Shown here: one piece after another, positions 29,418-60,155 of the stretch
How positions within the stretch are numbered: the stretch's first letter is position 1
Layout: every line of letters begins with the position of its first letter
Assembly (NCBI GenBank): GCA_023128895.1
Contig: JAGMDC010000003.1
Coordinates: 2,254-66,253 of the forward strand
Source: Candidatus Parcubacteria bacterium
Lineage (GTDB): Bacteria > Patescibacteriota > Minisyncoccia > Minisyncoccales > JAGMDC01
Length of the DNA stretch: 64,000 bases
Direction: 5' to 3'
Notes under the pieces: model-generated
Seen by the model: the letters and a program-made list of their open reading frames with translations, nothing else
What the model was told of the DNA's origin: nothing
The model's database searches: none
Made by a program: the position numbers and the translations under genes

Positions 29418-29495
29418 AATTAGGAGCGAGGAATAAATGTAAAAATGAGTTTTTACATTTATTCCGAGCGAGTAATTATGCGGCTTTGCCGCAAT
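29418..29495 (-). repeat. family-A element, copy A5, abutting the ATG of the carboxypeptidase gene
   Basis: On the minus strand: attgcggcaaagccgcataattactcgctcgg-aataaatgtaaaaactcatttttacatttatt-cctcgctcctaatt-ATG. Confidence 0.85.
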
Positions 29496-29500
29496 ATTTG

Positions 29501-30886
29501 TTACTTCGCAATTTTAATATGTAGCTCTTTTAATTGCTCCTGCGTCACTTCGCTTGGAACACCCATCATTAAATCACGATTGTCTCCTGTTTTTGGAAAA
29601 GCAATAACTTCTCTAATATTCGGTTCATTCAGAACCACTGATAAAAATCTGTCTATGCCAGGCGCGATTCCTCCATGAGGCGGCACGCCGTAGCTAAACG
29701 CTTCAAAATAATTTTTAAAATTCTTTTTAATATCTTCTTTCTTATGGCCCAAAACCTCAAAAACAGCGGTAAGAATATCTAAATCTATTGTTCTTAAACT
29801 TCCTCCTCCTATTTCATATCCATTTAGTACAAAATCATATTGATAAGCCAAAATGTCTTTTGGACTTTTCTTTATTTCTTTAATATCCCGCGTTTGCGGC
29901 ATTGTGAAAGGGTGATGCATTGCTCCCCATTTTTTATCTCCTTTCTTGTATTCAAACATTGGAAAATCAGTGATAAAAGCAAAAGCTAGTTCATTCGGAT
30001 CTTTTTTATTTTTCCTTAAATCCGGCTTATCACTCTTATATTTGCCCATCGCTTCTTTGTAAGTCATACGGAAAAAAGGCGTTTTAGCAATTTTTTTGTC
30101 TGGAAATATTTTTTTAACTAAATTTGTATAAAGTTCTTCTGTTAAATTTAAAATTTCTTCTTGGGATGTAAAACTCATCTCAACATCCAATTGCGTATGT
30201 TCCGCTTGTCTGTCCCCGCGAGGATCTTCGTCGCGCAAACATCTTGCTATCTGGAAATATTTTTCGATTCCAGCCACCATTAAAAATTGCTTATACTGCT
30301 GAGGGCTTTGCGGCAGGGCAAAAAACTGCCCTGACCCAGTCCGCGAAGGAACCAAAAAGTCCCTGGCTCCTTCTGGAGTGGATTTAGTTAAAATAGGCGT
30401 TTCTATTTCAGTAAATTCCTGCTTTATTAAAAAATCCCGCATAAAGTGAATAACTTTCTGGCGGATTCTTAGGTTGTTTGCCATACGTCCGCGCCTTAGA
30501 TCAAGATAACGATGTTTTAACCGCTTTTCTTCGTTTATTTCAAACCCGGAAGTATCAATAGCAAAAGGTAATGTTTTGGCTTCTGATAAAATTTTGAGAT
30601 TTTCCGCCTTAATTTCTACTTTTCCAGTTTCAAGTTTTGGGTTTATCATACCTTTGGGCCTTTTCTTGACTTCTCCTGTTATTTCAATAACCCATTCCGG
30701 CCTTAATTTTTCTGACAAACCACAGGGCTCGCATTTTGAAGTAAAAACAATTTGAGACAAACCGGTTCTGTCGCGAAGGTCAATAAAAATAATCTTTCCA
30801 TGGTCTCTTCTGGAATTCACCCAACCGCAAAGTTTCACAGATTTTCCTATATGTTTGTTAAGTTCTTTGTTTAATACTCGTTTCAT
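29501..30886 (-). CDS. aspS: aspartyl-tRNA synthetase, bacterial-type sequence but lacking the GAD insertion domain
   Basis: FFALPQSPQQYKQ, motif 2 CLRDEDPRGDRQAEHTQLD and motif 3 GIAPGIDR. Only 461 aa: SDKPDLR is followed almost directly by FITDFPMFE. Confidence 0.9.
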   Translation of the reverse strand: MKRVLNKELNKHIGKSVKLCGWVNSRRDHGKIIFIDLRDRTGLSQIVFTSKCEPCGLSEKLRPEWVIEITGEVKKRPKGMINPKLETGKVEIKAENLKILSEAKTLPFAIDTSGFEINEEKRLKHRYLDLRRGRMANNLRIRQKVIHFMRDFLIKQEFTEIETPILTKSTPEGARDFLVPSRTGSGQFFALPQSPQQYKQFLMVAGIEKYFQIARCLRDEDPRGDRQAEHTQLDVEMSFTSQEEILNLTEELYTNLVKKIFPDKKIAKTPFFRMTYKEAMGKYKSDKPDLRKNKKDPNELAFAFITDFPMFEYKKGDKKWGAMHHPFTMPQTRDIKEIKKSPKDILAYQYDFVLNGYEIGGGSLRTIDLDILTAVFEVLGHKKEDIKKNFKNYFEAFSYGVPPHGGIAPGIDRFLSVVLNEPNIREVIAFPKTGDNRDLMMGVPSEVTQEQLKELHIKIAK

Positions 30887-31325: not shown

Positions 31326-31380
31326 AATATTAATATATGTATAATATTGCGACCTTTATTTTTGTTTTACAATTTTATTA

Positions 31381-31584
31381 TTGCGGCAGAGCCGCATAAT
31401 TACTCGCTTCGCTATCAATTATTGCGGCTTCGCCGCATAATTACTCGCTTCGCTATCAATTATTGCGGCTTCGCCGCATAATTACTCGCTTCGCTATCAA
31501 TTATTGCGGCTTCGCCGCATAATTACTCGCTCGGTTTAAATACAAAAATGAATTTTTGTATTTTTCCCCTCACTCGCAATTATA
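31381..31584 (+). repeat. family-A element, copy A6, with its first module amplified to four tandem 41-bp units; no downstream gene
   Basis: attgcggc occurs at 31381, 31422, 31463 and 31504 (period 41 bp). It is followed by ctcggtttaaatacaaaaatgaatttttgtatttttcccctcactcgcaattATA, where ATG is degenerate. Confidence 0.85.
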
Positions 31585-33548: not shown

Positions 33549-34460
33549 ATGATGGAACCTAAAAAATCAGATTTTGGAAAACAAGAGATTAAAAAATGTC
33601 CAGAGTGCGGATGCAGATATCTAATAACCAGCGATAAGGAAATTTACTGTTCTGGCTGTGGATTAGTGATTGCGGAAAATATAATTGACCTTGGCCCTGA
33701 ATGGCGGGCTTATGATGCTGAACAACACCAGTCAAAAACAAGAACCGGCCCTTCAATGAACTGGCGATATTATGATAAAGGATTGTCAACAGCCACGCCG
33801 CTTGCAAATAAAATACCAAACATCCGACAACCGCGCATTTCAGTCCAAGCAGTGTCAAAAGAAAAAACTTTAGCATTTACTCTTTCGGAAATGCACAGAA
33901 TATGCTCAGCGCTTCAATTACCAGATATAACAAAAGAAGAAGCAGCGAAATTATGCCATAATACGCGGAAAAAAAATCTATTTAGAGGTAGAAGAACAGA
34001 AGCAATAGCAGCGGCAATTGTTTATATCGTCTGCAAAGAACAAAAAATATCCAGAACGCTTTCAGAAATAGAAAAAGTATCAAGGGTGAAACAAAAAGAA
34101 ATCAGAAGAACTTATATATTCTTGCAAAAAGAGCTCAAATTAAAAACCAGACAAATTTCCAGCGCTGAATTAATACCGCGCTACTGCTCTAAACTCGGCT
34201 TGAACAGTCAAATAGAAAAATCGGCAAGAGAAATAATTAACAAAGCAGAAGAACAAAACTTAACCGATGGTAAACGGCAAGCAGGAGTCGCTGCCGCAGC
34301 AATTTATATCGCATGCTTTTTGGAGAGTACACATCGCACGCAAAAAGATATATCTCGGGTTGCAGGAATAACAACGCAGACACTCAGCACAAGATACAAC
34401 GAAATATCAAAAAAATTACAAATTAGAGATATGTATTTAATTCTGGACAAAAAAATATGA
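33549..34460 (+). CDS. TFB/TFIIB-family transcription initiation factor homolog
   Basis: N-terminal zinc ribbon CPECGCRYLITSDKEIYCSGCG. B-reader/linker signature IDLGPEWRAYD ... YDKGLST. Two cyclin-like repeats follow. Length is 303 aa. Confidence 0.8.
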   Translation: MMEPKKSDFGKQEIKKCPECGCRYLITSDKEIYCSGCGLVIAENIIDLGPEWRAYDAEQHQSKTRTGPSMNWRYYDKGLSTATPLANKIPNIRQPRISVQAVSKEKTLAFTLSEMHRICSALQLPDITKEEAAKLCHNTRKKNLFRGRRTEAIAAAIVYIVCKEQKISRTLSEIEKVSRVKQKEIRRTYIFLQKELKLKTRQISSAELIPRYCSKLGLNSQIEKSAREIINKAEEQNLTDGKRQAGVAAAAIYIACFLESTHRTQKDISRVAGITTQTLSTRYNEISKKLQIRDMYLILDKKI

Positions 34461-34495: not shown

Positions 34496-35620
34496 CTAAC
34501 AAATTATTCCACCTCCCAAGAGGTTTTCGCGAATATAAAAAACAACGGACTGGCCAAAAGTTATCGCGCGCTGGGGCTTATTAAACACTATTTTGTAATT
34601 TTTACCTTTGCTTTGATATTTCAAAATAGCAGAGGCGGGTTCGTGATGATAGCGAATTTTCGCTTTTACCCTCAAAGGCATTTTTGGTTTGTTTCCAGAA
34701 ATCCAATTAACATTTTCAGCTACAAGTTCTTTTTTATCTAATTCTTTTTCCTTTTTCGTAACGAATAAAATATTTTTCTTTATATCTTTTCCTGAAACAT
34801 AATAGGGACCGCCTGGCAAGCCAATGGATTTTCTTTGCCCAATTGTGTAAAAACACAAACCCTGATGCTCGCCGATAATTTCATTTTTTTGGTTCAAAAT
34901 TTTTCCCGGTTTTGATTTGATATATTTTTTTAAAAAAGCATTAACATCTTTGCCGATAAAACAAATATCCTGGGACTCTTTTCTTGTAAATCGCGAAATG
35001 CCAATTTTTTCAGCGATTTTCCCCGCTTCTTTTTTAGTATAATTTCCTAAAGGAAACAAAATTTTCTCTAATTCTTTTTGTTCTAACATCCATAAAAAAT
35101 AGGACTGGTCCTTGCTTCTGTCCTTTGCTTTCAACAATTGATATTCGTTACTCTGTGCTTTTTGTCGCAGGCGGGCCTGCCCGCAATGCTTCGCGTAGCG
35201 TTGCAGGCGAGCCTGCCCGCAATGCTTCGCGTAGCGTTGCAGGCGTGCGTAATGTCCGGTTGCGACGAAGTCAAAATCAATTTTTAATTTTTTAAGTTTT
35301 TTCACCAATAAATCAATCTTAATTTCTTTATTGCAGATAACGCAGGGATTAGGGGTTGTCCCCTGCTTAATTTCTTTGATAAACCTGTCAATAATTTTCT
35401 TTTTGAATTCTTTTTTAACATCTAAGACCAAAAATGGAACATTTAATTTTTTACAAATTTTTTCTGCGCGGATTTTTGCTTTTTGGAATTCCTTTGAATC
35501 AAACAAATCCAAAAAAACACCAACAACATTATATCCCTTTTGCTTTAACAAAAAACACGCAACACCAGAATCTTTTCCTCCTGACATTGCGCAAATAATT
35601 ATTTGATTTTCGCTTCTCAT
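34496..35620 (-). CDS. mnmA: tRNA-specific 2-thiouridylase
   Basis: PP-loop CAMSGGKDS, ATGHYAR and KDQSYFL. Contains an in-frame tandem repeat ARLQRYAKHCGQ x2. Confidence 0.9.
   Translation of the reverse strand: MRSENQIIICAMSGGKDSGVACFLLKQKGYNVVGVFLDLFDSKEFQKAKIRAEKICKKLNVPFLVLDVKKEFKKKIIDRFIKEIKQGTTPNPCVICNKEIKIDLLVKKLKKLKIDFDFVATGHYARLQRYAKHCGQARLQRYAKHCGQARLRQKAQSNEYQLLKAKDRSKDQSYFLWMLEQKELEKILFPLGNYTKKEAGKIAEKIGISRFTRKESQDICFIGKDVNAFLKKYIKSKPGKILNQKNEIIGEHQGLCFYTIGQRKSIGLPGGPYYVSGKDIKKNILFVTKKEKELDKKELVAENVNWISGNKPKMPLRVKAKIRYHHEPASAILKYQSKGKNYKIVFNKPQRAITFGQSVVFYIRENLLGGGIIC
35175..35246. repeat. two tandem family-C 36-bp GC-rich palindromes inside the mnmA coding sequence, in frame
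   Basis: gcctgcccgcaatgcttcgcgtagcgttgcaggcg(a/t) occurs twice. Its reverse complement is closely similar to 22280..22315. Confidence 0.85.
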
Positions 35621-35643: not shown

Positions 35644-36405
35644 TCACAATTCTTTCACTATTTTCGCGAATTCATTGGGATCCAAAGACGCGCTGCCGAC
35701 TAATACGCCTTGAAATCCAGCATCTTTGACAAAACTCGCTACATTCGCGCTGTTAACGCTCCCTCCATAAAGTATTTGAATTTTTTTAGCGGTTGGCTGT
35801 GAATATTTTTGCGCAATAATTTTTTGTATAAGCAGGCGCGCAACGCACGCTTCGTCAGAAGAGCAGGCCTTTCCCGTGCCAATTGCCCATCTTGGCTCAT
35901 AAGCAAAAACTATTTTCCCAATTTCTTTTTTAGAAACTTTTTTCAGCGCGTTTTCTATCTGAGACCTTAACACAATGGAAATTTTTCCTTTTTCTTTGTC
36001 TTCTTTTGTCTCGCCTATGCACAAAATCGGGATTAAACCAAAAGACAAAATCGCTTGAACTTTTCTGTTTATCATTTGGTTTGTTTCATTAAGGAACTTC
36101 CGCCTCTCGGAATGCCCGACAATAATATACTTGCATCCTAAATTTTTTAACATTATTGGCGAAACCTCGCCAGTATACGAACCCTTACCTTCCCAAAAAC
36201 AATTCTGGGCTCCTAATCTTATTCGCGTTTTCTTTCTTCTTAATAACAATTCAGATAATTTAGGAAGATAAATAAACGAAGGGCAAACCACTATTTCCGC
36301 TTTTCTGATTTTTCGCAATCCTTTATTCAATAACTTAAAAAGCTCTTCAGCTGATTTTGCTGTTAATAAATTGCATTTCCAATTTGCGATAATCAATGTC
36401 TTCAT
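35644..36405 (-). CDS. tpiA: triosephosphate isomerase
   Basis: IIANWKCN, VGHSERR and YEPRWAIGTG. Confidence 0.9.
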   Translation of the reverse strand: MKTLIIANWKCNLLTAKSAEELFKLLNKGLRKIRKAEIVVCPSFIYLPKLSELLLRRKKTRIRLGAQNCFWEGKGSYTGEVSPIMLKNLGCKYIIVGHSERRKFLNETNQMINRKVQAILSFGLIPILCIGETKEDKEKGKISIVLRSQIENALKKVSKKEIGKIVFAYEPRWAIGTGKACSSDEACVARLLIQKIIAQKYSQPTAKKIQILYGGSVNSANVASFVKDAGFQGVLVGSASLDPNEFAKIVKEL

Positions 36406-36506
36406 AATTATGAGTGAGGGAAAAATACAAAAATGAATTTTTGTATTTTAACCGAGCGAGTAATTATGCGGCTTTGCCGCAATAATTATGCGGCTTTGCC
36501 GCAATG
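36406..36506 (-). repeat. family-A element, copy A7, abutting the tpiA ATG, with its first hairpin module duplicated
   Basis: On the minus strand: attgcggcaaagccgcataatt x2, then actcgctcgg-ttaaaatacaaaaattcatttttgtattttt-ccctcactcataatt-ATG. Confidence 0.85.
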
Positions 36507-36513: not shown

Positions 36514-38439
36514 CTAATTATTTATCACTGATTTAATGTGTTCAACACTTTCCTGATTGGATAAGGTTGAAAGGTCGCCTAATTCCTCGCCTGTAAATAA
36601 TTTTCTCAAAATTCGACGCATAATTTTTCCGCTTCTGGTTTTAGGCAAATCCTTGACTATGTAAACTTGCTTTGTGGAAATAATAGGCCCGATTTCTTTT
36701 CTTAGTTGAAGTTTAATCTCCTTCTGAACTTTCTCAACAGGCGTTGTTTCTTTGAGAACCACAAAAATTATCGGGACTTGTCCTTTTATTTCGTCTAAAA
36801 CCCCAACAACAGCGCTTTCTGAAATATAAGAAATATGAGAAACCGCGTCTTCCAATTCTCCAGTGGTGAATCGGTGTCCCGCGACTTTCAAAACATCGTC
36901 GATTCTTCCAACAATCCTTATTAAACCGTTCTTGTCTTTCAGCGCGGCGTCAGAAGTGAAATAAATCTTTTTGCCGCACTGCCGCCAATATGTTTTCAAA
37001 TATTTTTCAGGATTTCTATAAATCCCGCGCAAAAGACCTGGCGCAAAAGGGGGAAGCAGAACTAAATTTCCCTGTTTATTAGACGAAACGCGCTTGCCCT
37101 TGTCATCAACTATGTCAAACTTTAATCCGGGAAACGGCAAACCAGTGAAACAGGGCCTAAAAGGTCCTATTCCAGGCAAAGATGTAATTAAAATTCCGCC
37201 TGTTTCTGTCTGCCACCAAGTGTCAACAACAGGACATCTATTTTTTCCAATCTCTTTGAAATACCATTTCCACGACGATTCGTCTATTGGCTCCCCTACT
37301 GAACTCAAAAGCCGCAGGGTTTCAAATTTATATTTTTTCAATATATCAGCGCCGTATTTTTTGAACATCCTCACGGCAGTAGGCGCGGTATAAAAAATTG
37401 TTATTCCGTATTTTTCAATAATTCGCGCCCATCTGTCCGGCGTCGGAGAATTCGGCGCGCCCTCAAAAATAACAAATGTCGCGGCATTTAACAAAGGCGA
37501 ATAACAGCTGTAGGTATGGCCGGTAATCCAGCCCAAATCCGCGGTTGACCAAAAAATATCATCTTTTCGCAAATCAAAAATCCATTTTCCGGTGAACTTT
37601 GCCTGAACAGCATAGCCGCCGCAGGTCTGGACAGTGCCTTTGGGCTTCCCGGTGCTCCCGCTCGTGTAAAGTATGAATAAAGTGTCTTCAGCGTCCATTA
37701 TTTGCGCATCGCATTCATCTGATTCTCCCGCGACTAAATTCTGCCACCATAAATCCCTATTCCTGTTCCAGGCAACCTCATTGCCAGCTCGCTTGACAAC
37801 AATCATTTTTTTGACTTTTGTGTTTTTTATTGCTTCATCAGCGTTCCTCTTCAAATCAATAACTTTCGCTCTTCTGTAATATCCGTCTGCTGTAATCAAG
37901 ACCTTTGCTTTAGTATCCTGCAATCGTATCTGCAGGGCAGAAGAACTAAAAGCGGAAAAAACTACCGTATGAATCGCGCCAATTCTCGCACAGGCGAGCA
38001 TAGAAATTATTGCCTCTGGGATCATTGGCAAATAAATCCCGACTCTATCGCCTTTTTTCACGCCTAATCTTTTAAGCGCATTCGCAAACCGATTTACTTC
38101 TCTGAATAATTCATAATATGTCAAAACCCTTTGCCTTTCTTCTGGAATTTCCGGCTCCCAGATGATTGCCGCTTTGTTTTTTATATTTTCCCATCCAAGA
38201 GAATTATTTTCAAAAATATTGGAAGTGATATTAATCTTTCCCCCAACAAACCACTGGAAATACGGTGGTTTATGTATAAACGCTTTCTTCCATTTCTTGA
38301 ACCAAAAAAGTTCTTTTGCCAAACCTTCCCAAAACTTAATCGGATTTTTCCCAGCGTCTTTATAAATTTTCTTGTTATTTATAATCGCGCTATGCGCGAA
38401 TTCTTTTGATGGATAATATAAATCTCCTTTCTTAAGCAT
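36514..38439 (-). CDS. acs: acetyl-CoA synthetase (AMP-forming)
   Basis: YTSGSTGKPKG, WWQTETGG and LPKTRSGKIMRR. Confidence 0.9.
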   Translation of the reverse strand: MLKKGDLYYPSKEFAHSAIINNKKIYKDAGKNPIKFWEGLAKELFWFKKWKKAFIHKPPYFQWFVGGKINITSNIFENNSLGWENIKNKAAIIWEPEIPEERQRVLTYYELFREVNRFANALKRLGVKKGDRVGIYLPMIPEAIISMLACARIGAIHTVVFSAFSSSALQIRLQDTKAKVLITADGYYRRAKVIDLKRNADEAIKNTKVKKMIVVKRAGNEVAWNRNRDLWWQNLVAGESDECDAQIMDAEDTLFILYTSGSTGKPKGTVQTCGGYAVQAKFTGKWIFDLRKDDIFWSTADLGWITGHTYSCYSPLLNAATFVIFEGAPNSPTPDRWARIIEKYGITIFYTAPTAVRMFKKYGADILKKYKFETLRLLSSVGEPIDESSWKWYFKEIGKNRCPVVDTWWQTETGGILITSLPGIGPFRPCFTGLPFPGLKFDIVDDKGKRVSSNKQGNLVLLPPFAPGLLRGIYRNPEKYLKTYWRQCGKKIYFTSDAALKDKNGLIRIVGRIDDVLKVAGHRFTTGELEDAVSHISYISESAVVGVLDEIKGQVPIIFVVLKETTPVEKVQKEIKLQLRKEIGPIISTKQVYIVKDLPKTRSGKIMRRILRKLFTGEELGDLSTLSNQESVEHIKSVINN

Positions 38440-38521
38440 ATTACTCTATTTTAAAGTATTACTAAATTATGTCAAACAAAAAATAGACAAAATTGTCTAT
38501 TGAAAATTTTAAATAAGTAAC

Positions 38522-38582
38522 CAAAATAAAAATTACAGCTTCTTGCCAATAAATTCAGCGAATTCACACATTCTGCAGGAAT
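38522..38582 (-). repeat. 61-bp direct repeat: orphan duplicate of the gap 3' end (putative distal att site)
   Basis: Matches 44591..44651 with 3 mismatches by hand count. The remnant translates as SCRMCEFAEFIGKKL-stop, versus SCRMCEFAEFIGKQL-stop in gap. Confidence 0.85.
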
Positions 38583-38626
38583 TTTCATCACAATATCTCT
38601 GGCATAGTTTAATTGCTTAGTATAAA

Positions 38627-39376
38627 TTATTGGCTGTTAATTTCATAAATCTTTCTTTCTCCACTTGGCAGTTCGTATTCCAGTTCTGTGTCAGAGAGCC
38701 ATTTGGGTTTGAAACGCCAAGAAGGGTCGGATGAAGCAATTTTAATCTTTTCTTTGGTGAAAAGATTGTAAATCCATAGATTTTTCATCTCTCCTCTTTG
38801 TCTCGCTTCTTCTTCCATCTGTTCAACCACTCCTCCAAAACCAGTAAAAGATGTCATATCAACATAAGCGAGCCATCCTTTGAAGTTCCACGCTCTTTCA
38901 GCTCCGGAAGGAAGATCAGAAGGCATAGACAAAATATCAGTTTTCCATGTTCCCATCTCTACACGGTAATATGCGGTTTCATAAGCTCCAACATATATAT
39001 CTCCCCATAAATATTTACCATCCGGAGTCCAAATACCTAACCCAAAACTGCCTGGTTCAATATCTGAATGTTTTTCCAATATCTCATCAAGGGTCAAAAC
39101 AAAAACATCCTCTTTTGTTTCTAAAACCTTGATGACAAGGGCATAATCAGGACTGCCGAGATAACCGCGTTCAAGAACAACATAATTTTCTGTAGGGTCA
39201 ACGCGAAAATCTCCAAGTATATTTTCAAAAGACCATTTAGCATAAGAAGCGATTAATGCTTTCCCTTTTCCGTTATAATTATATCTCCACAACTCTCTTC
39301 TATAATTTTCAAGTGGTATTTTTTTTTGATAATCATAATTAAAAGTTCTTATTGCATATACACCGCATTTATGCAA
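38627..39376 (-). CDS. hypothetical protein (TTG start only; possibly the continuation of the upstream ORF)
   Basis: A 249-aa ORF with no ATG near its 5' end. It begins 1 nt after the TGA of 39378..39689. Confidence 0.4.
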   Translation of the reverse strand: MHKCGVYAIRTFNYDYQKKIPLENYRRELWRYNYNGKGKALIASYAKWSFENILGDFRVDPTENYVVLERGYLGSPDYALVIKVLETKEDVFVLTLDEILEKHSDIEPGSFGLGIWTPDGKYLWGDIYVGAYETAYYRVEMGTWKTDILSMPSDLPSGAERAWNFKGWLAYVDMTSFTGFGGVVEQMEEEARQRGEMKNLWIYNLFTKEKIKIASSDPSWRFKPKWLSDTELEYELPSGERKIYEINSQ

Positions 39377-39377
39377 C

Positions 39378-39689
39378 TCAATTGGGTGATAATGATCTGG
39401 GATCTGGATTTGATATATTTATTTGAAAACTAAATATTTCTGTATTATCTTTTTTATTTTTGATAAAAATTTCGGCTATTCCTCCGCCCTCTTCTTTCTT
39501 TTTGATTTCATATCCTGCTACTTCATCATCTGCCAGACAAGCGCTATGAGCAACCAAATTTTCCTGCGCTCCTTTGTTTTCTTCTATTTCCCTTATTGCC
39601 CGCTGCTGATAATTCAATACAACTACAATTGCAAGAAAAAATGTTAAAACAACTATAATAAGATATAACCAATTTCTCATAAAACTCAA
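39378..39689 (-). CDS. hypothetical N-terminally membrane-anchored protein
   Basis: TM helix WLYLIIVVLTFFLAIVVVL. Length is 103 aa. Confidence 0.4.
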   Translation of the reverse strand: MSFMRNWLYLIIVVLTFFLAIVVVLNYQQRAIREIEENKGAQENLVAHSACLADDEVAGYEIKKKEEGGGIAEIFIKNKKDNTEIFSFQINISNPDPRSLSPN

Positions 39690-39892
39690 AGATGCTTAAT
39701 AATGTATTGAGTGTCGTTAATTAAAAGATTAGAACACTGGTCTGTGATGTACTGTCTTTCGGCAAAGAACTCAACTTCTCTGATAAACCATTCAAGAACA
39801 TTAGTTATTATTCCGTTCATAGTCTTCTCATACGCTTCTTTCATCCTTTCTAATACTTGTTCTATCGCTGGAAGTTTAGCTTCATCTATCAA
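39686..39892 (-). CDS. hypothetical 68-aa protein
   Basis: ORF with a 4-bp overlap onto the next gene. Confidence 0.35.
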   Translation of the reverse strand: MIDEAKLPAIEQVLERMKEAYEKTMNGIITNVLEWFIREVEFFAERQYITDQCSNLLINDTQYIIKHL

Positions 39893-40027
39893 TTCATCAT
39901 AATACCTTAATCGTTCTTATTTTTCTTGCTCTAATCTTTGAGCTGATTTCAGCTTGGCAATGAGCATATCTTTGACAAATCCCAGATATTATAAATATCC
40001 GATATCTACATCAATCCAGTTTAATTT

Positions 40028-40360
40028 TCATGTAGACAAGATCAAAGCCGTTATAAATATAAAAAATACAAATAATGATACTAACAAACCAATGATAGAT
40101 AGAACTATACCTACTATAGCATGACTCTTTTTGGTCGACCTTAACCCAGTTATTCCAAAAATTAAACCGAGAATAGCACTTATTATTGCTATAGAAAGTG
40201 TTATTGCATATATTGCTACATTTATTGCCAAACTTGTTAATACTTCTGTTAATACTCCTACGCTCGGTGCTATTAAGCTAATAATACCCAATATCAAGGA
40301 AAGAACAGCCTTGCCCTTTGGGTCGGATTTTAATTTAGAAACATCTTGATTATCGCTCAT
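40028..40360 (-). CDS. small multi-TM membrane protein
   Basis: A 110-aa protein with three or four hydrophobic helices. Confidence 0.5.
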   Translation of the reverse strand: MSDNQDVSKLKSDPKGKAVLSLILGIISLIAPSVGVLTEVLTSLAINVAIYAITLSIAIISAILGLIFGITGLRSTKKSHAIVGIVLSIIGLLVSLFVFFIFITALILST

Positions 40361-40491
40361 ATTTTTTAATGTCTTAATTTTTTATTATCTTTTAACGACC
40401 TTTTAAGGTTTAGTGAATTCAGAACAACCCGACAGCAAACCTAACACAGGAATTACAGCGTTCGGGCTACTGTAAACCGCAAAATGCGTAA

Positions 40492-43400
40492 TCACCAAGA
40501 TAGATGAAAAAATGAGTTAAGAGCCCCTAAAAACCGCGTACGTAAGCCAGTAGTATGAGATTTAAAAAACGAGGGAGCGGCAAACTTAACCGCTAATTGG
40601 GCGTATGACCAGGATTGGCTTAGCCGCATTACTGCTTTGTCCGGCCGTGCTTTAGATATTTCTTTCTCTGCTCTTGATAACTCTCTTTCGGCTTTCTCTA
40701 TGAAGCGATCAACTGTGTTTTGAAACATAGGATTTCCAATTGGTGTATTCTTGGCGTCATTGATAGCTGTTTCAGCTATTATCCTGTCTGCTTTGATTAG
40801 ATTATCTACAACTTGATTAAATACTGGCAGAACAGTGTTAATGGCTTCAATCTCGGTCTCTTCTTTCTCTGTGTCTAATCCGAATTTTTGCTTTATCTCT
40901 ATAATTCTTTCCAGGATTGATGTTTTTGTATTAAATATCCGTGCTTTATGATAAAGACGGCTTACAGCAAAGGATTGTTCAAAGAGAACTTTCCTACCCT
41001 GGTTTGAATCAAGACGAAAATCGTCAATCCACAAGGCATTATCCAAACTTTTATCAATATGCCTGATAATTGAATCAATTTCTCTATTTATTGCTTTATT
41101 ATTAGTTTTACTTTCTTCCAAGAGAGATATGCTTTGTTCTTTGAGAAGTTTAGGGGTTTGCCAGGGAATTGCCGGCAGAACAGCGATATCTGTTGTTCCT
41201 GTGATTGGCTGTTCTAATTCCTGCCCTGGCTCTATTTGCTCAGTGCTAATATTTGATTTGTATTGTTGGCTGGCTTCATCGTAATAAATTGCTTGAACCT
41301 CATAAGTTTCAATCCCATCAGTTAATTCTTGAAGTTCAGGATAAGTTTCTATCATTTCTTGGATATCTTTGCTGGAAACAACGAAATGAACCTTTGTTTC
41401 CTCGGGCACAAAAATCCATTCATCGTCGTAAACAAGATCCCCCGAGGCAATGGCTTCTGGAATTTGATTTTCATATTCTCCTGTTTCGTAATTCATGCCA
41501 GTATGTCTACCTAGCTCATCGTAAGCATGAAGGTCAACATCAGCAGAAATGGACTTGTAAGAAACATTTAAGGGGGTGGTCAAATTATTTGAATGAGCAG
41601 AAGCAAAAGAAACGAAAAAAGTTAAAATAAAGATAATTGCTAAAAAAATAATAATTCGCAAAATCGTTTTTTTTGCTTTTTGCTTTTTGATAATCCAAAA
41701 TCGTAAAAAGAACAGAGATATAATGAGCAGAGCTAAAATTTGCTGCAAACCGCTTGTTATCATTGAAAGATATCTTACCGATGCATACTCATAAATTTGT
41801 TCAATTTTATATCCAAAGACATGTAAATAAAATCGTTCGCCGGGTCCCATTGGATGAAGATGAAAATAAAGAATTTCTTTCTGCTCTTCCTTATCAAATT
41901 CAGAAGATATCTCATTAACTTTGAAAGGATCAGAAGCGAACTCCCAAATTTTTTCTAATAAGGACAATTTTGGTCGCAAAACAGTTCCAACATAATTTGA
42001 AAGGGTACATTCAGAAATTTGAGCATTAATTTTAAAACTATCGGGTTCAGCAATACGATTATTTATTTCAACGAAAACATTGTTTATCGGATCTTTAAAT
42101 GGCGAGTTCAAGGGATCTGGAATGGGCGGAACTAATGGACCTAAAGAAATTATACCCACAGATTTAGCAATATTAACAAAATTAATCGTAGTTGTCTCAT
42201 TATTTACTGTAATTTCTTTGGGCGAAATTTTATAAATTACCAAAGGATTATCTGGTAAATCTGTATCCCATTTACTATATGCAGAATTATTAGTTCTGGC
42301 TTCTAAAAGATAATATGAGTCATTAGCAAGATTATACCTTGCCACTTCATCGCCAAACTTCATTGTTTCTAATGATTCGATTGTATGACTGCCATATTCT
42401 ACAACATTTTCCTGAAGCCAGCCGAGCTTAATTTTGCTAAATGAAGAGAAATAAGATGTGATATTTTGTGTTACGCTCCAAATATTTGTGGCGCCACCCA
42501 TTATATCAAAATAATTGGGAACAGATCCGCCATAACCGCCATCGTAACAAGGGTTTGCTGTAGAATATAAATCACATAAAGGATAACCTGTTAATATATT
42601 ACCCAAAGCGTGTCCTAATTCATGAGACCAGACATATTTTGTGCCATTTTCCGCAACTGCTATCCAATTATTAATGAACTCGGTCGGACTATTAATTGGC
42701 GCGGGGGAAAAAGAAGGCGTCCACCATTGAGATGAAAGAGGATATTTTTGCAAAGAAAGTAATTTTTGTTCTGAATCTCCCCAATAAATAACTATAACAC
42801 TTTGATAATCATTATAATCTATATCTTCATCAGCTTTATTGATTGCGTCCCAAATAAATTGCTCTGTCCTGTCCTCATCTTTTACTTTTATTTCTCTACC
42901 CTGTCCGTCAAGACCAAAGCTTATTTCCTGAACTTGAGAAAAGTTTTTTCCGTAATGTTTCTGAGTTTGCTCTAACTTATAATTCAATTCATTGTTGTCA
43001 TAAACATCAAAATTTAAATTAAAAAGTCCTCCATTGCAAGTTTTTGTAATTGGATCCCATTTTCCAAACGAATTTTCACAATAATAATCTTCAACTTGTT
43101 CAGTAATGCTTTCAAAGTATTCTTTGTTATGCGAAAAATCAAAAAATTTATCGGGATCACTCGGTTCAGCTAAAATCACCGCAATATTGTAGGTTGGAGA
43201 TTGAGGCGCTTCCCACCCGCTCTCTTGTATAAATGGGTATCTGTCTCGGCAAGGATGAAGACAATAATATCCATAATGATAGCCGCCCCAGAAGTTATAA
43301 GAAAGATATGGGGTATCGCCTATTCCATCACTGCCAGGTTGGTCTTGTTCGGGTCCGCTCTTTTCATCTACGCCTGTATAATCGCTCCAATAATTGCCGC

Positions 43401-44577
43401 CTGATGGATAATCATTGTCTAAAAAATCAGTATCGCAAACAAACATCTCGGGACTATTGTGGTTATCAATAAAATTATTGTGAAATATCTCATTATCCTT
43501 GCTGCACATTACCATTCCAGCTGGCCAGTACCAATGACAAAGCATGCGCAAACCATATTCTGTATTCTCTCTCAAAGTATTTTCAGTGACAGTATTGTAA
43601 TGAGAAAGGAATATATAAATACCATGTTGATTTAAGCTAATATCATTATCTGTAATTGTATTATAACTGGAATAATACAGACAGATTCCAAAATCGTTAT
43701 TTGAATTGACAATATTGTCAACGAGAATATTATTGTCAGAATGCGTTAAACGAATTCCGTGAGATTTATTATTGGAAACATTATTGTTGTTAAGGGTGCT
43801 ATTTGAACCATAATAAAAAAAAGCGCCTGAATGAAAATTATTTACAGTACAATTTTTAACAGCAACATTAGTTTTGCGATTTACATAAACGCCGTATCCA
43901 GTATCAGAGCCTGTCATGTTATAGCCAGCGCAGTCCAAAGTAATATTACTCTCTGTTATCTCTATACTTTCAATTAAATCCTGGGTTAAAGTACAGGTTG
44001 AGGTTCCTTCATTCCAGATGCCATAATCAGAGCATTCTTCCGGCAGAAATACTACATTATCGCTTTCAGACAGGGTTTGAATATCTTTGGATTGAATCCC
44101 TGCATCCGCTTCGGGCTGAATCCAAATATGATGGGATTGGGTTAAGTCTTGAGTCCAATTATGTTCTCCATTTCTATTGGAAACAAAAACAGCTTTGTTT
44201 TTGTAGCTGTCTTGGAATTTGTAATAGGTTGTATTTGGCTCTAATCCGCTAATAGTTAAATTAGTAGAAGCAAAATCGGTTGAGGAGCTAATATCCATAC
44301 TAATCATTCTTGGGATTGATTCTATATCTATTGTTATTTCTTCAGTGCTTTTCAGAGAAATATTGAGATATTCGCTGTCAATTATTTCAAAATAACTGCC
44401 TGTTCCTTCAACTTTTCCAGATATTTGCGGTTCCAGCAATGCGTCCTCGGCAAAGGTTACTGCCGGTATTATCATTAAGAATGCCAAACTTGCTAAGACA
44501 ATTTTCATTGGTTTATATTTTTCCGTAATCCGTTTTGCTGTTGTTTTAATTTCTTTTTGACATTTTCTTTTATTCAT
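40492..44577 (-). CDS. giant surface protein: parallel beta-helix repeats plus HExxH metallopeptidase motif, two internal TM helices and a helical C-terminal domain
   Basis: Signal anchor. Beta-helix repeats of NosD/PbH1 style (NNNVSNNKSHGIRLTHSDNNILVDNIV...). SHELGHALG. TM pair ILALLIISLFFLRFWII / IIIFLAIIFILTFFVSF. Length is 1361 aa. Confidence 0.65.
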   Translation of the reverse strand: MNKRKCQKEIKTTAKRITEKYKPMKIVLASLAFLMIIPAVTFAEDALLEPQISGKVEGTGSYFEIIDSEYLNISLKSTEEITIDIESIPRMISMDISSSTDFASTNLTISGLEPNTTYYKFQDSYKNKAVFVSNRNGEHNWTQDLTQSHHIWIQPEADAGIQSKDIQTLSESDNVVFLPEECSDYGIWNEGTSTCTLTQDLIESIEITESNITLDCAGYNMTGSDTGYGVYVNRKTNVAVKNCTVNNFHSGAFFYYGSNSTLNNNNVSNNKSHGIRLTHSDNNILVDNIVNSNNDFGICLYYSSYNTITDNDISLNQHGIYIFLSHYNTVTENTLRENTEYGLRMLCHWYWPAGMVMCSKDNEIFHNNFIDNHNSPEMFVCDTDFLDNDYPSGGNYWSDYTGVDEKSGPEQDQPGSDGIGDTPYLSYNFWGGYHYGYYCLHPCRDRYPFIQESGWEAPQSPTYNIAVILAEPSDPDKFFDFSHNKEYFESITEQVEDYYCENSFGKWDPITKTCNGGLFNLNFDVYDNNELNYKLEQTQKHYGKNFSQVQEISFGLDGQGREIKVKDEDRTEQFIWDAINKADEDIDYNDYQSVIVIYWGDSEQKLLSLQKYPLSSQWWTPSFSPAPINSPTEFINNWIAVAENGTKYVWSHELGHALGNILTGYPLCDLYSTANPCYDGGYGGSVPNYFDIMGGATNIWSVTQNITSYFSSFSKIKLGWLQENVVEYGSHTIESLETMKFGDEVARYNLANDSYYLLEARTNNSAYSKWDTDLPDNPLVIYKISPKEITVNNETTTINFVNIAKSVGIISLGPLVPPIPDPLNSPFKDPINNVFVEINNRIAEPDSFKINAQISECTLSNYVGTVLRPKLSLLEKIWEFASDPFKVNEISSEFDKEEQKEILYFHLHPMGPGERFYLHVFGYKIEQIYEYASVRYLSMITSGLQQILALLIISLFFLRFWIIKKQKAKKTILRIIIFLAIIFILTFFVSFASAHSNNLTTPLNVSYKSISADVDLHAYDELGRHTGMNYETGEYENQIPEAIASGDLVYDDEWIFVPEETKVHFVVSSKDIQEMIETYPELQELTDGIETYEVQAIYYDEASQQYKSNISTEQIEPGQELEQPITGTTDIAVLPAIPWQTPKLLKEQSISLLEESKTNNKAINREIDSIIRHIDKSLDNALWIDDFRLDSNQGRKVLFEQSFAVSRLYHKARIFNTKTSILERIIEIKQKFGLDTEKEETEIEAINTVLPVFNQVVDNLIKADRIIAETAINDAKNTPIGNPMFQNTVDRFIEKAERELSRAEKEISKARPDKAVMRLSQSWSYAQLAVKFAAPSFFKSHTTGLRTRFLGALNSFFHLSW

Positions 44578-44590
44578 TATTACAAAATTG

Positions 44591-44651
44591 CAAAATAAAA
44601 ATTACAGCTGTTTTCCAATAAATTCAGCGAATTCACACATTCTGCAGGAAT
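44591..44651 (-). repeat. 61-bp direct repeat partner covering the true 3' end of gap (putative proximal att site)
   Basis: See 38522..38582. Confidence 0.85.
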
Positions 44652-45612
44652 AAGCGAATTCATTGTCATACCAAGATATAATTTTGATTAAATTATCTTT
44701 TGCCATTGTCAATTGCGTGTCAACAATAGACGAAAAAGGATTTCCAATATAATCAGACGAAACCAATGGCGCGTTTTCTGTTGTTAAAATTCCCTGAAAA
44801 TTTTCTTGCGCGCTCGCCTCTTTAAAAAAATTATTAACTTCTTCAACGCTTGCGCTTTTCTCTGTCTGGCAAACAAAATCTATTGCTGAAACAACAGGAG
44901 TGGGCACTCTAATGGCAATTCCGTCAAGTTTGCCCTCCACTTCAGGAATAACCCTGCCAATTGCTTTTGTGGCGCCGGTAGTAGTAGGAACAATGTTCTG
45001 CGCCGCGGCGCGCGCCCGGCGCAAATCCTTATGCGGCAAGTCCAAAAGCCGCTGGTCAGTAGTATAACTGTGAATAGTCGTCATAAATCCTTTCTCAATT
45101 TTCAAATTGTCGCCAAGAACTTTTACTACCGGAGCAAGGCAATTAGTAGTACAGGAACCCATGTCAACAATTTCGTCTTTTTCTGGATTAAATTTTTGTT
45201 CATTTACTCCTAAAATATAGGAAAAGATTTTTTCCGGGGTTTTTGTGGGCGCTGAAATGAGCACTTTCTTGGCACCTGCCTGAATATGCTTTTTCGCGCC
45301 TTCGTAATCCCGAAAAACGCCTGTGCATTCCAAAACAACATCTATACTCAAATCCTTCCAGGGAAGTTTGGAGGGATCTTTTTCAGCGAAAATTTTAATT
45401 TCTTTGTCGCCAATAATAAGCGAATTCTCTTTTGCCTCCACTTGCTTATCATAGATTCCGTATAAAGAATCGTATTTCAAAAGGTGAGCCAATGTTTTTG
45501 CGTCAGTCAAATCATTTATAGCAACCACTTCTAAATCAGGATGTTTGTCTAAAATCCTTCTAAAACTTGACCTCCCAATCCGACCAAACCCATTTATTGC
45601 AATTTTAATCAT
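44602..45612 (-). CDS. gap: type I glyceraldehyde-3-phosphate dehydrogenase
   Basis: INGFGRIGR and SCTTNCLAP. Confidence 0.95.
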   Translation of the reverse strand: MIKIAINGFGRIGRSSFRRILDKHPDLEVVAINDLTDAKTLAHLLKYDSLYGIYDKQVEAKENSLIIGDKEIKIFAEKDPSKLPWKDLSIDVVLECTGVFRDYEGAKKHIQAGAKKVLISAPTKTPEKIFSYILGVNEQKFNPEKDEIVDMGSCTTNCLAPVVKVLGDNLKIEKGFMTTIHSYTTDQRLLDLPHKDLRRARAAAQNIVPTTTGATKAIGRVIPEVEGKLDGIAIRVPTPVVSAIDFVCQTEKSASVEEVNNFFKEASAQENFQGILTTENAPLVSSDYIGNPFSSIVDTQLTMAKDNLIKIISWYDNEFAYSCRMCEFAEFIGKQL

Positions 45613-45708
45613 AAAAAAATAAATAATGAGCGAGACAACAAGCCCTCAAAAATAAAAAAATATGAAGTTCAGGAATAAACTTCTTTGCCTTGCGAATTAT
45701 TTAATAAA

Positions 45709-46746
45709 TTACTTACACTCTCCGCCCGAGGAATCGCCTTCGCCAGCGCCAAAACCAGGAATAGGAACTTCATCGGAAAGCGTTTGAGAACATTGTTTTG
45801 GCTCTGTATTAAACGCCTGACAAACTATGCTTTTGAAATTTTCCGGAGAACGCGGACTGATTTCTGTTGTTTTTCCGTTAATAATTATAGTTGGCGAACC
45901 CTTAACTTCATACTCATTGTTCAAATCCGCGTGCAAATCAAACTTTGGAAACTGGCCGCTCTTCCAGGTTGATTTATCATTATATTGCGCTGTTACATTA
46001 AATTCCTGGTCAATACGCGCGACACAAGCGTCAACGCGCGCTTCATCCACTCCTGCTTCTGCCAGACATTTTTTCGCGTCCGCAACAGCGTTAAAAACAA
46101 AACAATTCAAATAATTATAATACTTATCCTCTTGCTCCAATTCAATGCAATACTGGCGCAAATTTTCGTCAATTTCCGGCTTGTCGTGCATTATGTAATC
46201 AACGTAATAGATGTCTATATCTGCTTCGTCTTTTAACAAATTATAAACAGGCAAAAACATTTTTTGCGCCTGCAAGCCGTAAGGGCAATACGACATCACA
46301 AAAACCTTTATATCAGGCCTGTCTGCTTTAACAACTTCTTTTTCCTTTTTAACTTCTTCTATGTCAATAAACTGCGGAAATAAAAATTTTCCGTTTTTTG
46401 TAATATATGAATCAAATTCCTCTTCCTGAATTTTCAATTTAATCCTGTAAATTCCGCTTTCTTCCGCTGATTCTATCACAGAAGCAGTCATCCCCCCCTG
46501 AAGCATATTCTCATTGATAAAACTTACTGCCAGCGCGCCTGCGTCTTCAATGCTTAACAATTCCTCTGTGTTATTATTGTTATTGTTTCCGGCAAAAATT
46601 GTCGGATTTACGTAAATTATCGCGCCCGCAATCAAAACACCGGCAATTATTATTGCTATTGGCATTATTGTCTTGCATGTCTTTTTTTCTCCGGTCAAAC
46701 CTTGTGAATTTATAGATTCTGTTTCCATTGTTTTAATAATACTCAT
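45709..46746 (-). CDS. membrane-anchored thioredoxin-fold (DsbA-like) protein
   Basis: N-terminal TM helix and a CPYG redox-type motif in VFVMSYCPYGLQ. Confidence 0.5.
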   Translation of the reverse strand: MSIIKTMETESINSQGLTGEKKTCKTIMPIAIIIAGVLIAGAIIYVNPTIFAGNNNNNNTEELLSIEDAGALAVSFINENMLQGGMTASVIESAEESGIYRIKLKIQEEEFDSYITKNGKFLFPQFIDIEEVKKEKEVVKADRPDIKVFVMSYCPYGLQAQKMFLPVYNLLKDEADIDIYYVDYIMHDKPEIDENLRQYCIELEQEDKYYNYLNCFVFNAVADAKKCLAEAGVDEARVDACVARIDQEFNVTAQYNDKSTWKSGQFPKFDLHADLNNEYEVKGSPTIIINGKTTEISPRSPENFKSIVCQAFNTEPKQCSQTLSDEVPIPGFGAGEGDSSGGECK

Positions 46747-56733: not shown

Positions 56734-56742
56734 ATTTTATTT

Positions 56743-57708: not shown

Positions 57709-57751
57709 AAGTTTATAATGTCTAATTGTTCACAAAGAAATTGTTGAGATA

Positions 57752-58586: not shown

Positions 58587-58637
58587 CTATCAGCCGTGTT
58601 TTTAAAATTCTTCGGTGATTAGTTTTTGGATTTGATA

Positions 58638-60007: not shown

Positions 60008-60011
60008 ATAT

Positions 60012-60110: not shown

Positions 60111-60155
60111 AAAATCGCTATTAAATTGCTCGTAAAAAAATTACTGGGGCACAAT

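Follow-up and report, generated by a model that had tools for sequence, protein, structure and literature searches.

The window, a 64,000-nt stretch of Candidatus Parcubacteria bacterium contig JAGMDC010000003.1, carries a 61-nt direct repeat of the gap 3′ end that brackets a block of cargo genes between gap and acs (Table 1). The gap product is 100% identical to a Candidatus Parcubacteria protein at NCBI. All island genes are co-oriented with gap, and the stretch from the gap stop codon to the start of the cargo genes contains no terminator-like site. The hairpin beyond the orphan repeat copy has an 8-bp stem followed by TTTTTTG; the same sequence lies directly 3′ of gap in L005, a relative that lacks the island.

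Table 1. Features of the gap–acs interval, with positions in the window
Feature	Positions	Strand	Basis
gap, type I glyceraldehyde-3-phosphate dehydrogenase, 336 aa, intact, target gene	44602..45612	-	Pfam Gp_dh_N, Gp_dh_C
gap-attached repeat copy (attL-like): last 15 gap codons, stop codon, 11 nt	44591..44651	-	Repeat and shuffle searches
Inserted block, 6,008 nt	38583..44590	-	Absent from L005
1361-aa cargo protein	40492..44577	-	Pfam Beta_helix 1e-33, NosD 3e-24; TIGR03296 M6 1.4e-11 (below family cutoff)
110-aa membrane protein	40028..40360	-	Weak DUF4190 match
68-aa ORF, doubtful reality	39686..39892	-	Missing from public gene calls
Partner gene of surface module, split into 103-aa and 249-aa ORFs	38627..39689	-	Homologue comparison
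Orphan (displaced) repeat copy (attR-like), in frame, ends GKKL-stop	38522..38582	-	Repeat and shuffle searches
Hairpin and T-run, likely original gap terminator, now behind orphan and cargo	38476..38501	-	Centroid fold
Promoter-like site for acs, TTGACA-16-TAAAAT, 11/12 match	38448..38475	-	Motif match
acs, acetyl-CoA synthetase, 641 aa, ancestral downstream neighbor of gap	36514..38439	-	Pfam

Direct repeat and cargo genes

A repeat search of the window found copies identical at 58 of 61 nt (95%) with a spacing of 6069 nt, in agreement with the original prediction of 61-bp direct repeats with three mismatches. Exactly two sites match the repeat at ≤3 mismatches; 0 matches are expected by chance, and none occurred in 100 dinucleotide-preserving shuffles. 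On the minus strand, each copy comprises 2 nt of a Tyr codon, 15 codons, TAA, and 11 nt, and so spans gap 3′ codons, the stop codon, and 11 nt as had been predicted. The 15 codons encode SCRMCEFAEFIGKQL in the gap-attached copy and SCRMCEFAEFIGKKL in the orphan. Repeat edges are sharp. The 120-nt flanks of both copies match no better than shuffles (P=0.16 and 0.41), and longer degenerate homology outside the 61 nt was rejected on this basis. Folds of the 61 nt, attC-like or other, did not exceed shuffles on either strand (z −0.4 to −1.3). A dif-like 11-6-11 or ATAA-N6-TTAT palindrome is absent from the 61 nt as read by eye rather than with a formal dif model. An exact DNA search for the repeat core gave no matches in JGI metagenome contigs or viral contigs.

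Differences between the gap-attached and orphan copies are gga>ggc, aaa>aag, and cag>aag, and they cluster within 6 nt (P=0.016). GKKL, found in the orphan, is the family consensus, and GKQL, found in the gap-attached copy, is derived. The gap-attached copy is identical over 61/61 nt to the single copy in L005. The original prediction had read two synonymous changes and one conservative change here; the changes themselves stand, but the pattern on its own lacks significance, because at most one amino acid change arises in 28% of random three-substitution sets (P=0.28). Selection inferred from the substitution pattern was rejected accordingly.

The 1361-aa protein consists of a signal peptide or transmembrane segment, a NosD/right-handed beta-helix, an M6-like HExxH (HELGH) region, transmembrane segments, and a helical C-terminal domain. 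The Pfam matches and HELGH region agree with its prediction as a beta-helix/HExxH protein. Two other genes of this genome are its paralogues, and it is a mosaic with respect to them; relative to the 1264-aa paralogue, its N-terminus is 69% identical, its C-terminus is 88% identical, and its middle is unrelated. No full-length homologue with >45% identity was found outside this population. No flanking repeats were found around the two large paralogous genes (L009, L096). The island and the paralogue share exact-identity patches of 76–123 nt, which suggest active recombination.

The 249-aa ORF had been taken as a separate cargo gene of unknown function. The ORF is present, but it is a piece of a frameshifted beta-propeller partner gene. 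Intact homologues of this partner are 330–365 aa in length, ~100 aa longer, with an N-terminal transmembrane helix followed by a beta-propeller. The 103-aa ORF matches the N-terminus of P0123. The frameshift is a 7-nt tandem duplication (CCAGATC twice, 39394–39407), and removal of one 7-mer restores a 351-aa ORF 70% identical to P0123. An AlphaFold model of the partner protein (pLDDT 93) returned generic beta-propeller matches. The cargo is paralogous to a two-gene surface module resident in this genome. One gene encodes a NosD/beta-helix protein with an M6-like HExxH domain, and the other, frameshifted in the island, encodes a membrane-anchored beta-propeller. The segment at 39675–40482 is missing from the paralogous module.

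In Pfam, NCBIfam, and PHROGs, the island ORFs matched no family of integrases, transposases, or phage proteins, which bears out the prediction that no integrase lies inside. The ORF layout leaves no spare room for an integrase remnant, and no inverted repeats were found at the island ends. Transposons and insertion sequences differ from the island in having duplications of 2–14 bp rather than 61 bp, a transposase, and terminal inverted repeats. A prophage or phage satellite is likewise not indicated, as no PHROG matches occur among the island ORFs. Neither the att core nor any relative of the partner protein was found in viral contigs, and no Rfam matches were found in the island or in the insert of L055, a related gap locus.

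The tetranucleotide profile of the island is the most deviant of any 6-kb stretch in the window (z about 2.5–3). Composition as a sign of foreign origin was nevertheless rejected. It is uninformative on this point because the resident paralogous module is equally far from the window profile, as are ordinary flanks on a different contig of this genome. The k-mer comparison of island and flanks suggested with the original prediction therefore finds a deviant island that resident sequences equal.

Empty site and assembly support

L005 is 96–98% identical to the window in the flanks. Its gap adjoins acs, and the 61 nt are present once. It aligns to positions 45615–44591 and then 38582–36513, with the 61 nt shared and the island absent. 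acs lies 30–300 nt behind gap in ~30 of the 83 genome loci and in ~30 of the 80 metagenome loci, so ~60 other Parcubacteria loci have gap adjoining acs. L006 (84% GAP identity) and L007 (77%) have neither cargo nor repeat. Judged from these alignments, the 6,008 nt between the repeat copies are a recent insertion, because the site is empty in L005 and the gap–acs adjacency is widespread. The original prediction had proposed an insertion between gap and acs and an empty site in related genomes with gap directly next to acs, and both are supported. Its option of an ancient integration is contradicted by the 95% identity of the repeats and the 96–98% flank identity of the empty-site relative.

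The opposite polarity would make the cargo an ancestral part of the gap–acs interval that L005 deleted when its two repeat copies recombined, and it is very improbable. Such recombination would yield exactly the L005 structure. However, L006, L007, and ~60 other loci have neither cargo nor repeat, and the origin of the repeat would still require an insertion.

An empty-site junction would read gap, the 61 nt, and GTTACTTATTT. No empty-site variant was found among assembled contigs of the same population, and all population assemblies carry the island. No circular or excised form of the island and no donor were found; the circular junction expected on excision is GATATTGTGATGAAAA, the 61 nt, and CAATTTTGTAATAATG.

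The island junctions are not an assembly artifact. Four independent assemblies (L001–L004) contain the gap-side junction, and L095, L097, and L098 contain the acs-side junction. L099 begins inside the orphan and has the orphan's own allele. Several contigs terminate within the island, which chimeric joining across a short repeat might produce, but they do so exactly 55 nt into a 76-nt exact match with the paralogue, which is a k=55 graph branch. Population heterogeneity was rejected as the source of these contig ends for the same reason. With both junctions in independent samples and a distinct orphan allele, a chimeric join is hardly credible.

Recurrence behind gap in Patescibacteria

The survey set comprised 163 Patescibacteria gap loci (83 genome and 80 metagenome). 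A displaced gap end behind an intact gap was found in seven other locus types: L055, L056, L102, L116/L134/L139, L150/L151/L155, L159, and L173. L116/L134/L139 holds two nested events. Cargo in these cassettes includes a 128-aa ORF, a DUF1189 protein, a DUF5678 and aspartyl-protease pair, a diversity-generating retroelement (DGR; bAvd and reverse transcriptase), HicAB, and membrane proteins, and the L055 insert is ~120 nt and gene-less. The regenerated end and displaced fragment match the predicted footprint of an element that targets a gene 3′ end. Genes found between gap and acs elsewhere (metK, glutamate-synthase-like, a nucleotidyltransferase/HEPN pair, and others) have no displaced gap end; either some gap–acs genes arrived by another route or older footprints have decayed.

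The DUF5678/aspartyl-protease cassette is 98.2% identical (800/815) between L173 and L134, whereas identity is 74.3% for the host gap genes and 80.8% for the distal orphans, and the downstream DNA is unrelated. On these identities, the cassette moved between species. The last 36 nt of L173 gap match the L134 inner orphan at 34/36 positions and L134's own gap end at 28/36, which shows that the cassette brings a new gap terminus with it. In L134, the cassette-supplied terminus was displaced by a later insertion, as tandem accretion would leave it. The predicted supply of a replacement gene end accordingly holds for the L173/L134 cassette; in the window, the gap-attached copy is the L005 allele, and either copy may be the replacement. 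Orphans in L055, L056, L134, L155, and L173 differ from the resident gap end mainly at synonymous sites, and the copies therefore come from different functional alleles.

The duplication starts 36–39, 50, 54, ~60, 71–72, or 95 nt before the end of the gap stop codon, depending on the cassette. Every repeat has a perfect-identity run of 13–35 nt, which lies at the left end in L134 (13 nt), L155 (23 nt), L173 (32 nt), and the window (35 nt). Left boundaries of the repeat thus span 36–95 nt, and in three cassettes of two cargo types the boundary falls at the same WYDNE codons, with the identity run at the left end. No common motif was found in the cassette arms. Such events hit gap much more frequently than the other genes of these loci.

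The predicted Xer-like pair is real, with two tyrosine recombinases encoded at 14080–16429. Gene 3′-end duplications also occur at the mod locus, as had been predicted: inserted genes there are followed by two more orphan 3′ ends that are in frame. Around gap at the 163 loci, phmmer with the window's two Xer-like proteins as queries detected no tyrosine recombinase in the 2,057 ORFs that lie within ~10 kb, a screen confined to tyrosine recombinases encoded near gap as opposed to serine recombinases or enzymes from elsewhere in the genome or a helper element. No integrase was found in the eight other cassettes with a displaced gap end. The integrase-type integration originally proposed thus lacks support: no integrase is found in the island or in those cassettes, and this screen detected none within ~10 kb of gap.

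Origin of the island and comparison with known systems

We consider with moderate confidence that the island is a recently acquired, non-autonomous cargo cassette that entered the gap 3′ end by reciprocal recombination between the gap end and an incoming copy of it, most likely through host homologous recombination. RecA is encoded in this genome, and Patescibacteria reportedly retain both competence machinery and genes for homologous recombination (PMC12455944). We infer the enzyme, the form of the incoming DNA, and read-through expression as follows. Incoming DNA would bring a second version of the final ~50 nt of gap together with 11 nt beyond. Reciprocal recombination with the resident gap end would place the cargo directly behind an intact gap and push a 5′-truncated gap-end copy to the far side of the cargo, giving a regenerated target plus a displaced fragment. 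The host's own homologous recombination would be the most likely agent. The substrate may have been circular, with one gap-end copy and a Campbell-type single crossover, or it may have been linear and derived from a donor already so structured, in which case gap and orphan would provide two homology arms at the same conserved gene. The cargo follows the gap stop codon and precedes the old gap terminator, so read-through transcripts of the glycolytic operon probably include it.

The variable duplication start, perfect-identity runs, motif-less arms, and lack of a detected recombinase near gap may point to homology rather than to a fixed core. Against host recombination, homology of 36–104 nt at 72–95% identity is short for RecA. 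The shared WYDNE start in three cassettes and the identity run at the left are also what a site-specific core would be expected to give, and the strong preference for gap could mean target specificity rather than general homology. The same three observations favor site-specific integration by a tyrosine or serine recombinase that acted in trans (from the Xer-like pair or a helper element) or was since lost, which would make the island a CIME-like remnant mobilizable in cis or trans. The footprint is exactly that of integrase islands in tRNA genes and gene 3′ ends (PMC4383910; PMC7563491), and tandem accretion in L134 and at the mod locus and the two tyrosine recombinases in the window fit as well. 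This alternative is possible but doubtful: no integrase is present in nine cassettes and none was detected ~10 kb around gap at 163 loci, the left repeat boundary varies from 36 to 95 nt, the element arms have no common motif, the 61 nt show neither a dif-like 11-6-11 palindrome nor an attC-like fold (z about −1.2), and the island has no space for an integrase remnant.

Duplication in situ, through homology-facilitated illegitimate recombination after uptake or a template switch during replication in which foreign DNA was copied before rejoining occurred 61 nt upstream, would fit the sharp repeat boundaries, the lack of mobility genes, and a probably competent organism. It is improbable, since the copies in related cases differ at many synonymous sites, as different alleles rather than one template would, and one cassette has the same ends in two species. 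The clustering of the three differences in the window is also unlike independent decay.

CPR/Patescibacteria have very small genomes with few recognizable mobile elements. To our knowledge, they have no genetic system, and we know of no established fine-scale transfer mechanism. The gap island is an example with exact boundaries and known polarity, for which an empty site, the two junctions, and the displaced gap end are all documented. Together with the related loci, it marks a recurrent insertion point behind gap at which cargo-only cassettes arrive, stack, and cross species. Horizontal transfer is credited with up to 13% of Patescibacteria genome length (PMC12455944). Tentatively, a general recombinase-free route of gene gain may operate in Patescibacteria, in which each small cassette would carry a duplicate of the 3′ end of some strongly expressed, conserved gene, for example gap, rplL, ppsA, or mod. 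This duplicate would act as a portable homology arm through which RecA recombines the cassette in. DNA imported across species would join behind a gene that stays intact and lends its promoter, the displaced end at the far side of the cassette would also be part of the portable arm, and successive insertions would produce tandem arrays. Cargo moved this way would include toxin-antitoxin pairs, DGRs, homing-endonuclease genes, defense genes, and surface proteins. If host recombination suffices, it would explain integrase-free diversification of surface proteins, toxin-antitoxin systems, DGRs, and defense genes in streamlined episymbionts, and would offer a simple gene-delivery design of cargo flanked by the gap 3′ end. 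If a trans-acting recombinase is responsible, the conserved WYDNE-coding stretch of gap would be a new attachment site to search with.

We found no description in the literature of accessory cassettes spreading behind CPR housekeeping genes by insertion-duplication. Islander-type islands use tyrosine integrases and target tRNA or tmRNA genes or protein-gene 3′ ends, with the ICESt3 family at fda, rpsI, rpmG, and rplL and SGI1 at trmE. As here, element sequence regenerates the target, a displaced fragment lies at the far end, relatives have an empty site, and insertions stack (PMC4383910; PMC7563491). Both include a glycolytic target (fda there, gap here), and rplL is also a target. Islander-type islands carry an integrase beside one end. 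In the nine gap cassettes none was found, nor was one found close to gap at the 163 loci, and the duplicated gene-end length varies from cassette to cassette. Streptococcal CIMEs and microCIMEs are decayed ICE/IME remnants with cargo only, 1.2–13 kb and 130–220 bp in length, flanked by att repeats at a housekeeping gene 3′ end (PMC7563491). The island resembles a CIME in its att-like flanks and lack of recombination genes, and the ~120-nt gene-less L055 insert resembles a microCIME. CIMEs are, however, defined by descent from or tandem association with an integrase-bearing ICE or IME, and no such parent was found at gap in 163 loci by two-query phmmer.

The microcin H47 island of Escherichia coli is small, has imperfect direct repeats and no recombinase, and excises and re-integrates via its repeats with host functions (PMC5426353). 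Its mobility is independent of RecA and 16 known site-specific recombinases, and several homology blocks are used (PMC5426353). It shares with the gap island a recombinase-free block between imperfect direct repeats but belongs to another phylum, its repeats are not a housekeeping-gene end, and it is known to be mobile from experiments, whereas the gap island is known from sequence. Tycheposons of Prochlorococcus have tyrosine or serine recombinases, often replication genes, and tRNA-gene targets. They also bring cargo into streamlined genomes at fixed sites, and newer elements push older ones inward and leave partial target copies; the recombinases, replication genes, and tRNA targets are theirs and not the gap island's. 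IMEX, pdif modules, and integron cassettes are integrase-less cargo units with a recombinase encoded elsewhere; the first two are bounded by dif-like 28-bp sites and integron cassettes by folded attC. The 61-nt repeat shows neither a dif-like site nor an attC fold, and no integron integrase is adjacent. Campbell-type insertion-duplication by homologous recombination of non-replicating DNA is known as a laboratory tool, and Rhs/CDI toxins have displaced "orphan" C-terminal modules, with gene ends swapped for function. As at gap, both place an insert between two copies of one homologous segment, shift the former gene end downstream, and can give rise to arrays.

Insertion at the gap 3′ end

The window belongs to a metagenome-assembled genome of Candidatus Parcubacteria (CPR). 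On the minus strand, genes are ordered apgM, a 345-aa unknown, gap, the island block, acs, tpiA, and mnmA (see table). The direct repeat originally noted at the gap 3′ end, including an in-frame orphan copy beyond the insert, was confirmed with 58 of 61 nt identical; no such match occurs in shuffled sequence. In minus-strand orientation, both copies run from two bases of a Tyr codon through 15 codons and TAA to a further 11 nt. The translated end is GKQL in the gap-attached copy and GKKL, the family consensus, in the orphan. Sequences flanking the two copies are unrelated.

The island is a real, recent insertion. In the close relative L005 (a JGI contig), whose encoded GAP is 97% identical to that of the window, gap (96.2% nucleotide identity) is followed directly by the spacer and acs (98.3%), and the 61 nt occur in a single copy common to both alignments. 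This empty site bears out the proposed insertion and contradicts the suggestion that it was ancient. The cargo is absent in the more distant relatives L006 and L007, and acs lies 30–300 nt after gap in ~60 of 163 related loci. Every assembly from the window's population contains the island, with the gap-side junction present in four assemblies and the acs-side junction in three others. One Logan contig begins within the orphan and bears its allele. Three contigs end at window position 39006; this point falls exactly 55 nt inside a 76-nt stretch identical to a paralogue, so the breaks reflect the assembly graph. Composition, proposed as a check against the flanks, does not set the island apart from other parts of the genome.

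The gap-attached copy matches the single L005 copy at every position, and the three differences between copies are clustered and carried by the orphan. The 45 nt just upstream of the gap-attached copy hold 6 of the 39 mismatches between gap and L005. On the two genomes compared, the incoming copy may be either of the two, according to where the crossover fell. Between gap and its L005 counterpart, divergence follows a mosaic pattern: the first 600 nt contain 22 mismatches, the following 176 nt none, the 184 nt after that 17, and the repeat none. This pattern suggests that strains have recombined in tracts. Variability extends to the upstream side of gap: the spacer is 96 nt in the window versus 8 nt in L005, and L006 carries an additional 400-aa gene plus a REP-like element there. 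In L006 and L007, the interval between gap and acs contains a conserved ~100-aa ORF in opposite orientation, which the window and L005 lack.

Features of the window and compared loci
Feature	Location	Strand	Note
gap	44602–45612	-	immediately before island block
acs	36514–38439	-	beyond island block
Repeat, gap-attached	44591–44651		61 nt
Repeat, orphan	38522–38582		61 nt
gap divergence	44652–45615		vs L005 697–1660
Spacer upstream of gap	45613–45709
~100-aa ORF	L006 8635–8952; L007 11112–11411
CCAGATC duplication	39394–39407		last island gene
Identity patches	38684–41146		vs L009 9251–11038
TFIIB-like gene	33549–34460	+	303 aa
~90-nt repeats	383–446, 7720–7783, 18228–18318, 29412–29502, 31377–31564, 36400–36504
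138-nt repeat	10275–10412, 22315–22452
Xer-like genes	14080–15495, 15485–16429
mnmA tandem repeat	35164–35235
Type III R-M locus	54154–63978
mod	61966–63978
AAA ATPase	60156–61961		between mod and res
Orphan Mod C-terminus	59994–60111		33 codons
Schlafen/AlbA_2 protein	59375–60052		between mod and res
Orphan Mod C-terminus	58428–58586		52 codons
RhuM protein	56743–57708		between mod and res
res	54154–56733
rplL locus	L125 3601–4703
ppsA loci	L142 16663–17746; L149 15489–16582
gap insert	L055		~120 nt, no gene
gap insert	L056		one 128-aa ORF
gap insert	L102		DUF1189 membrane protein
gap insert	L116/L134/L139		two nested events
gap insert	L150/L151/L155 (L155 11024–13984)		DGR with bAvd, RT, TR/VR
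gap insert	L159		HicAB
gap insert	L173		DUF5678 + aspartyl-protease pair
gap inserts lie between gap and its displaced end.

Island cargo and other window features

No island ORF matched integrase, transposase, or phage families, in line with the original prediction. The predicted 1361-aa beta-helix/HExxH protein stands: it has a NosD/beta-helix region, a weak M6-metalloprotease-like region with HELGH, and transmembrane segments, and its gene has no close relative found outside the window's population. The 249-aa ORF is not a separate gene. In every assembly of the population, the last island gene is broken into ORFs of 103 and 249 aa by a tandem duplication of 7 nt (CCAGATC twice). With one copy removed, a single ORF of 351 aa is recovered, and homologues are 330–365 aa. 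The intact protein is a predicted membrane-anchored beta-propeller.

The large beta-helix protein and propeller form a module widespread in Parcubacteria. A second instance is found in the same genome (locus L009), and a third large paralogue lies between ftsK and recA (L096). Relative to the paralogous module, the island has an extra 0.8 kb with a 110-aa membrane protein. Its large protein is mosaic, with ends 69% and 88% identical to the paralogue and an unrelated middle. Patches of exact identity (76–123 nt; overall identity 80–90%) between the island and L009 suggest gene conversion between paralogues. The original gap terminator now lies after the orphan and none was found between gap and cargo, which makes cargo expression by read-through from gap likely.

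Elsewhere in the window, a gene encodes a protein that combines a TFIIB zinc ribbon with a pair of TFIIB cyclin repeats (Pfam 3.4e-45); it is conserved in position in L005 and in the assemblies L095, L097, and L098. Transcription factors of this archaeal/eukaryotic type are not expected in a bacterium such as this CPR member. Intergenic ~90-nt repeats, including three tandem 41-nt units (31377–31531), contain a GC hairpin (TGCGGC…GCCGCA) and an AT-rich palindrome, look REP- or MITE-like, and also occur in L005 and L006. Two intergenic copies of a 138-nt direct repeat (91% identical), 12 kb apart, enclose murG, gltX, two adjacent Xer-like tyrosine recombinase genes, uppS, and others. The mnmA interior has an in-frame, GC-rich 36-nt tandem repeat (two copies, 94% identical).

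Displaced gene ends at other loci

Around gap, 83 genome loci and 80 metagenome loci were scanned for a second, 5′-truncated gap end. Seven further locus types have one; Pfam confirmed their cargo assignments and detected no integrase among them. No tyrosine recombinase was found in 2,057 ORFs of these gap loci using phmmer with the window's two Xer-like proteins. Orphan and resident ends differ mainly by synonymous changes in most cases, so they derive from different functional gap alleles. The L155 insert (also in L150 and L151) is a complete diversity-generating retroelement with a 205-aa target gene containing the VR, a TR, a bAvd-like gene, and a 339-aa reverse transcriptase, bounded by gap-end copies starting at WYDNE codons.

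The DUF5678/protease cassettes of L173 and L134 are 98.2% identical, versus 74.3% for the host gap genes and 80.8% for the distal orphans; DNA farther out is unrelated. The high-identity block begins within the L173 gap, so the last 12 codons and stop of that gene are element-borne. The same 36 nt in L134 (34/36 identical) form the inner orphan, behind a later-arrived 133-aa cassette. This comparison shows directly that the gene terminus is replaced, that the old one is displaced, and that cassettes accrete in tandem.

The 3′-end duplications noted at mod were substantiated: two in-frame orphan Mod C-termini each lie behind an inserted block of defence-type genes between mod and res, the same footprint as at gap. 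Unknowns of 246 and 232 aa also lie between mod and res. Downstream of rplL in L125 come, in order, a ParE-like toxin-antitoxin pair, an orphan C-terminus of rplL (FEAAGAKVELK), and an HNH endonuclease gene. In L142 and L149, a 337-aa LAGLIDADG-domain ORF overlaps the ppsA stop codon and precedes an orphan ppsA C-terminus (18–28 codons). The two readings of this arrangement are a degenerate intein and a free-standing homing-endonuclease cassette that shares the footprint. Across the 2.1 Mb scanned, orphans of this type are otherwise rare.

Integration mechanism and precedents

Taken together with the structural claim, host-driven, homology-based integration is ranked first and is slightly favored. 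A linear donor fragment could recombine through a left arm in gap and a right arm in the orphan, and repeat length would equal the length of gap fragment carried by each cassette. Host homologous recombination would explain variable repeat length, hybrid alleles, and spread into hosts with different downstream genes. The window's genome encodes RecA, and the phylum is reported to be competent (PMC12455944).

A site-specific recombinase acting in trans is ranked second and seems rather unlikely. The repeats were rightly read as a footprint of gene-3′-end integration, and integrases targeting tRNA genes and gene 3′ ends leave the same one (PMC4383910; PMC7563491). Perfect-identity runs of 13–35 nt at the repeat's left end, WYDNE codons as the start in three cassettes, tandem accretion, and strong preference for gap over other genes also fit an integrase. 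However, left boundaries range from 36 to 95 nt, cassette arms have no common motif, the repeat lacks dif-like and attC-like features, cargo fills cassettes up to their edges, and no integrase was found in the cassettes or loci screened. Integrase involvement at the island is unproven.

Together, the island and related loci form a recurrent set of cargo-only cassettes, found after gap and after other conserved genes of CPR bacteria; no description of these was found in the literature searched. Taken by itself, the island adds one case to a type of structure already known. An experimentally studied precedent is the H47 island of Escherichia coli, which has no recombinase and moves by way of its flanking repeats (PMC5426353).
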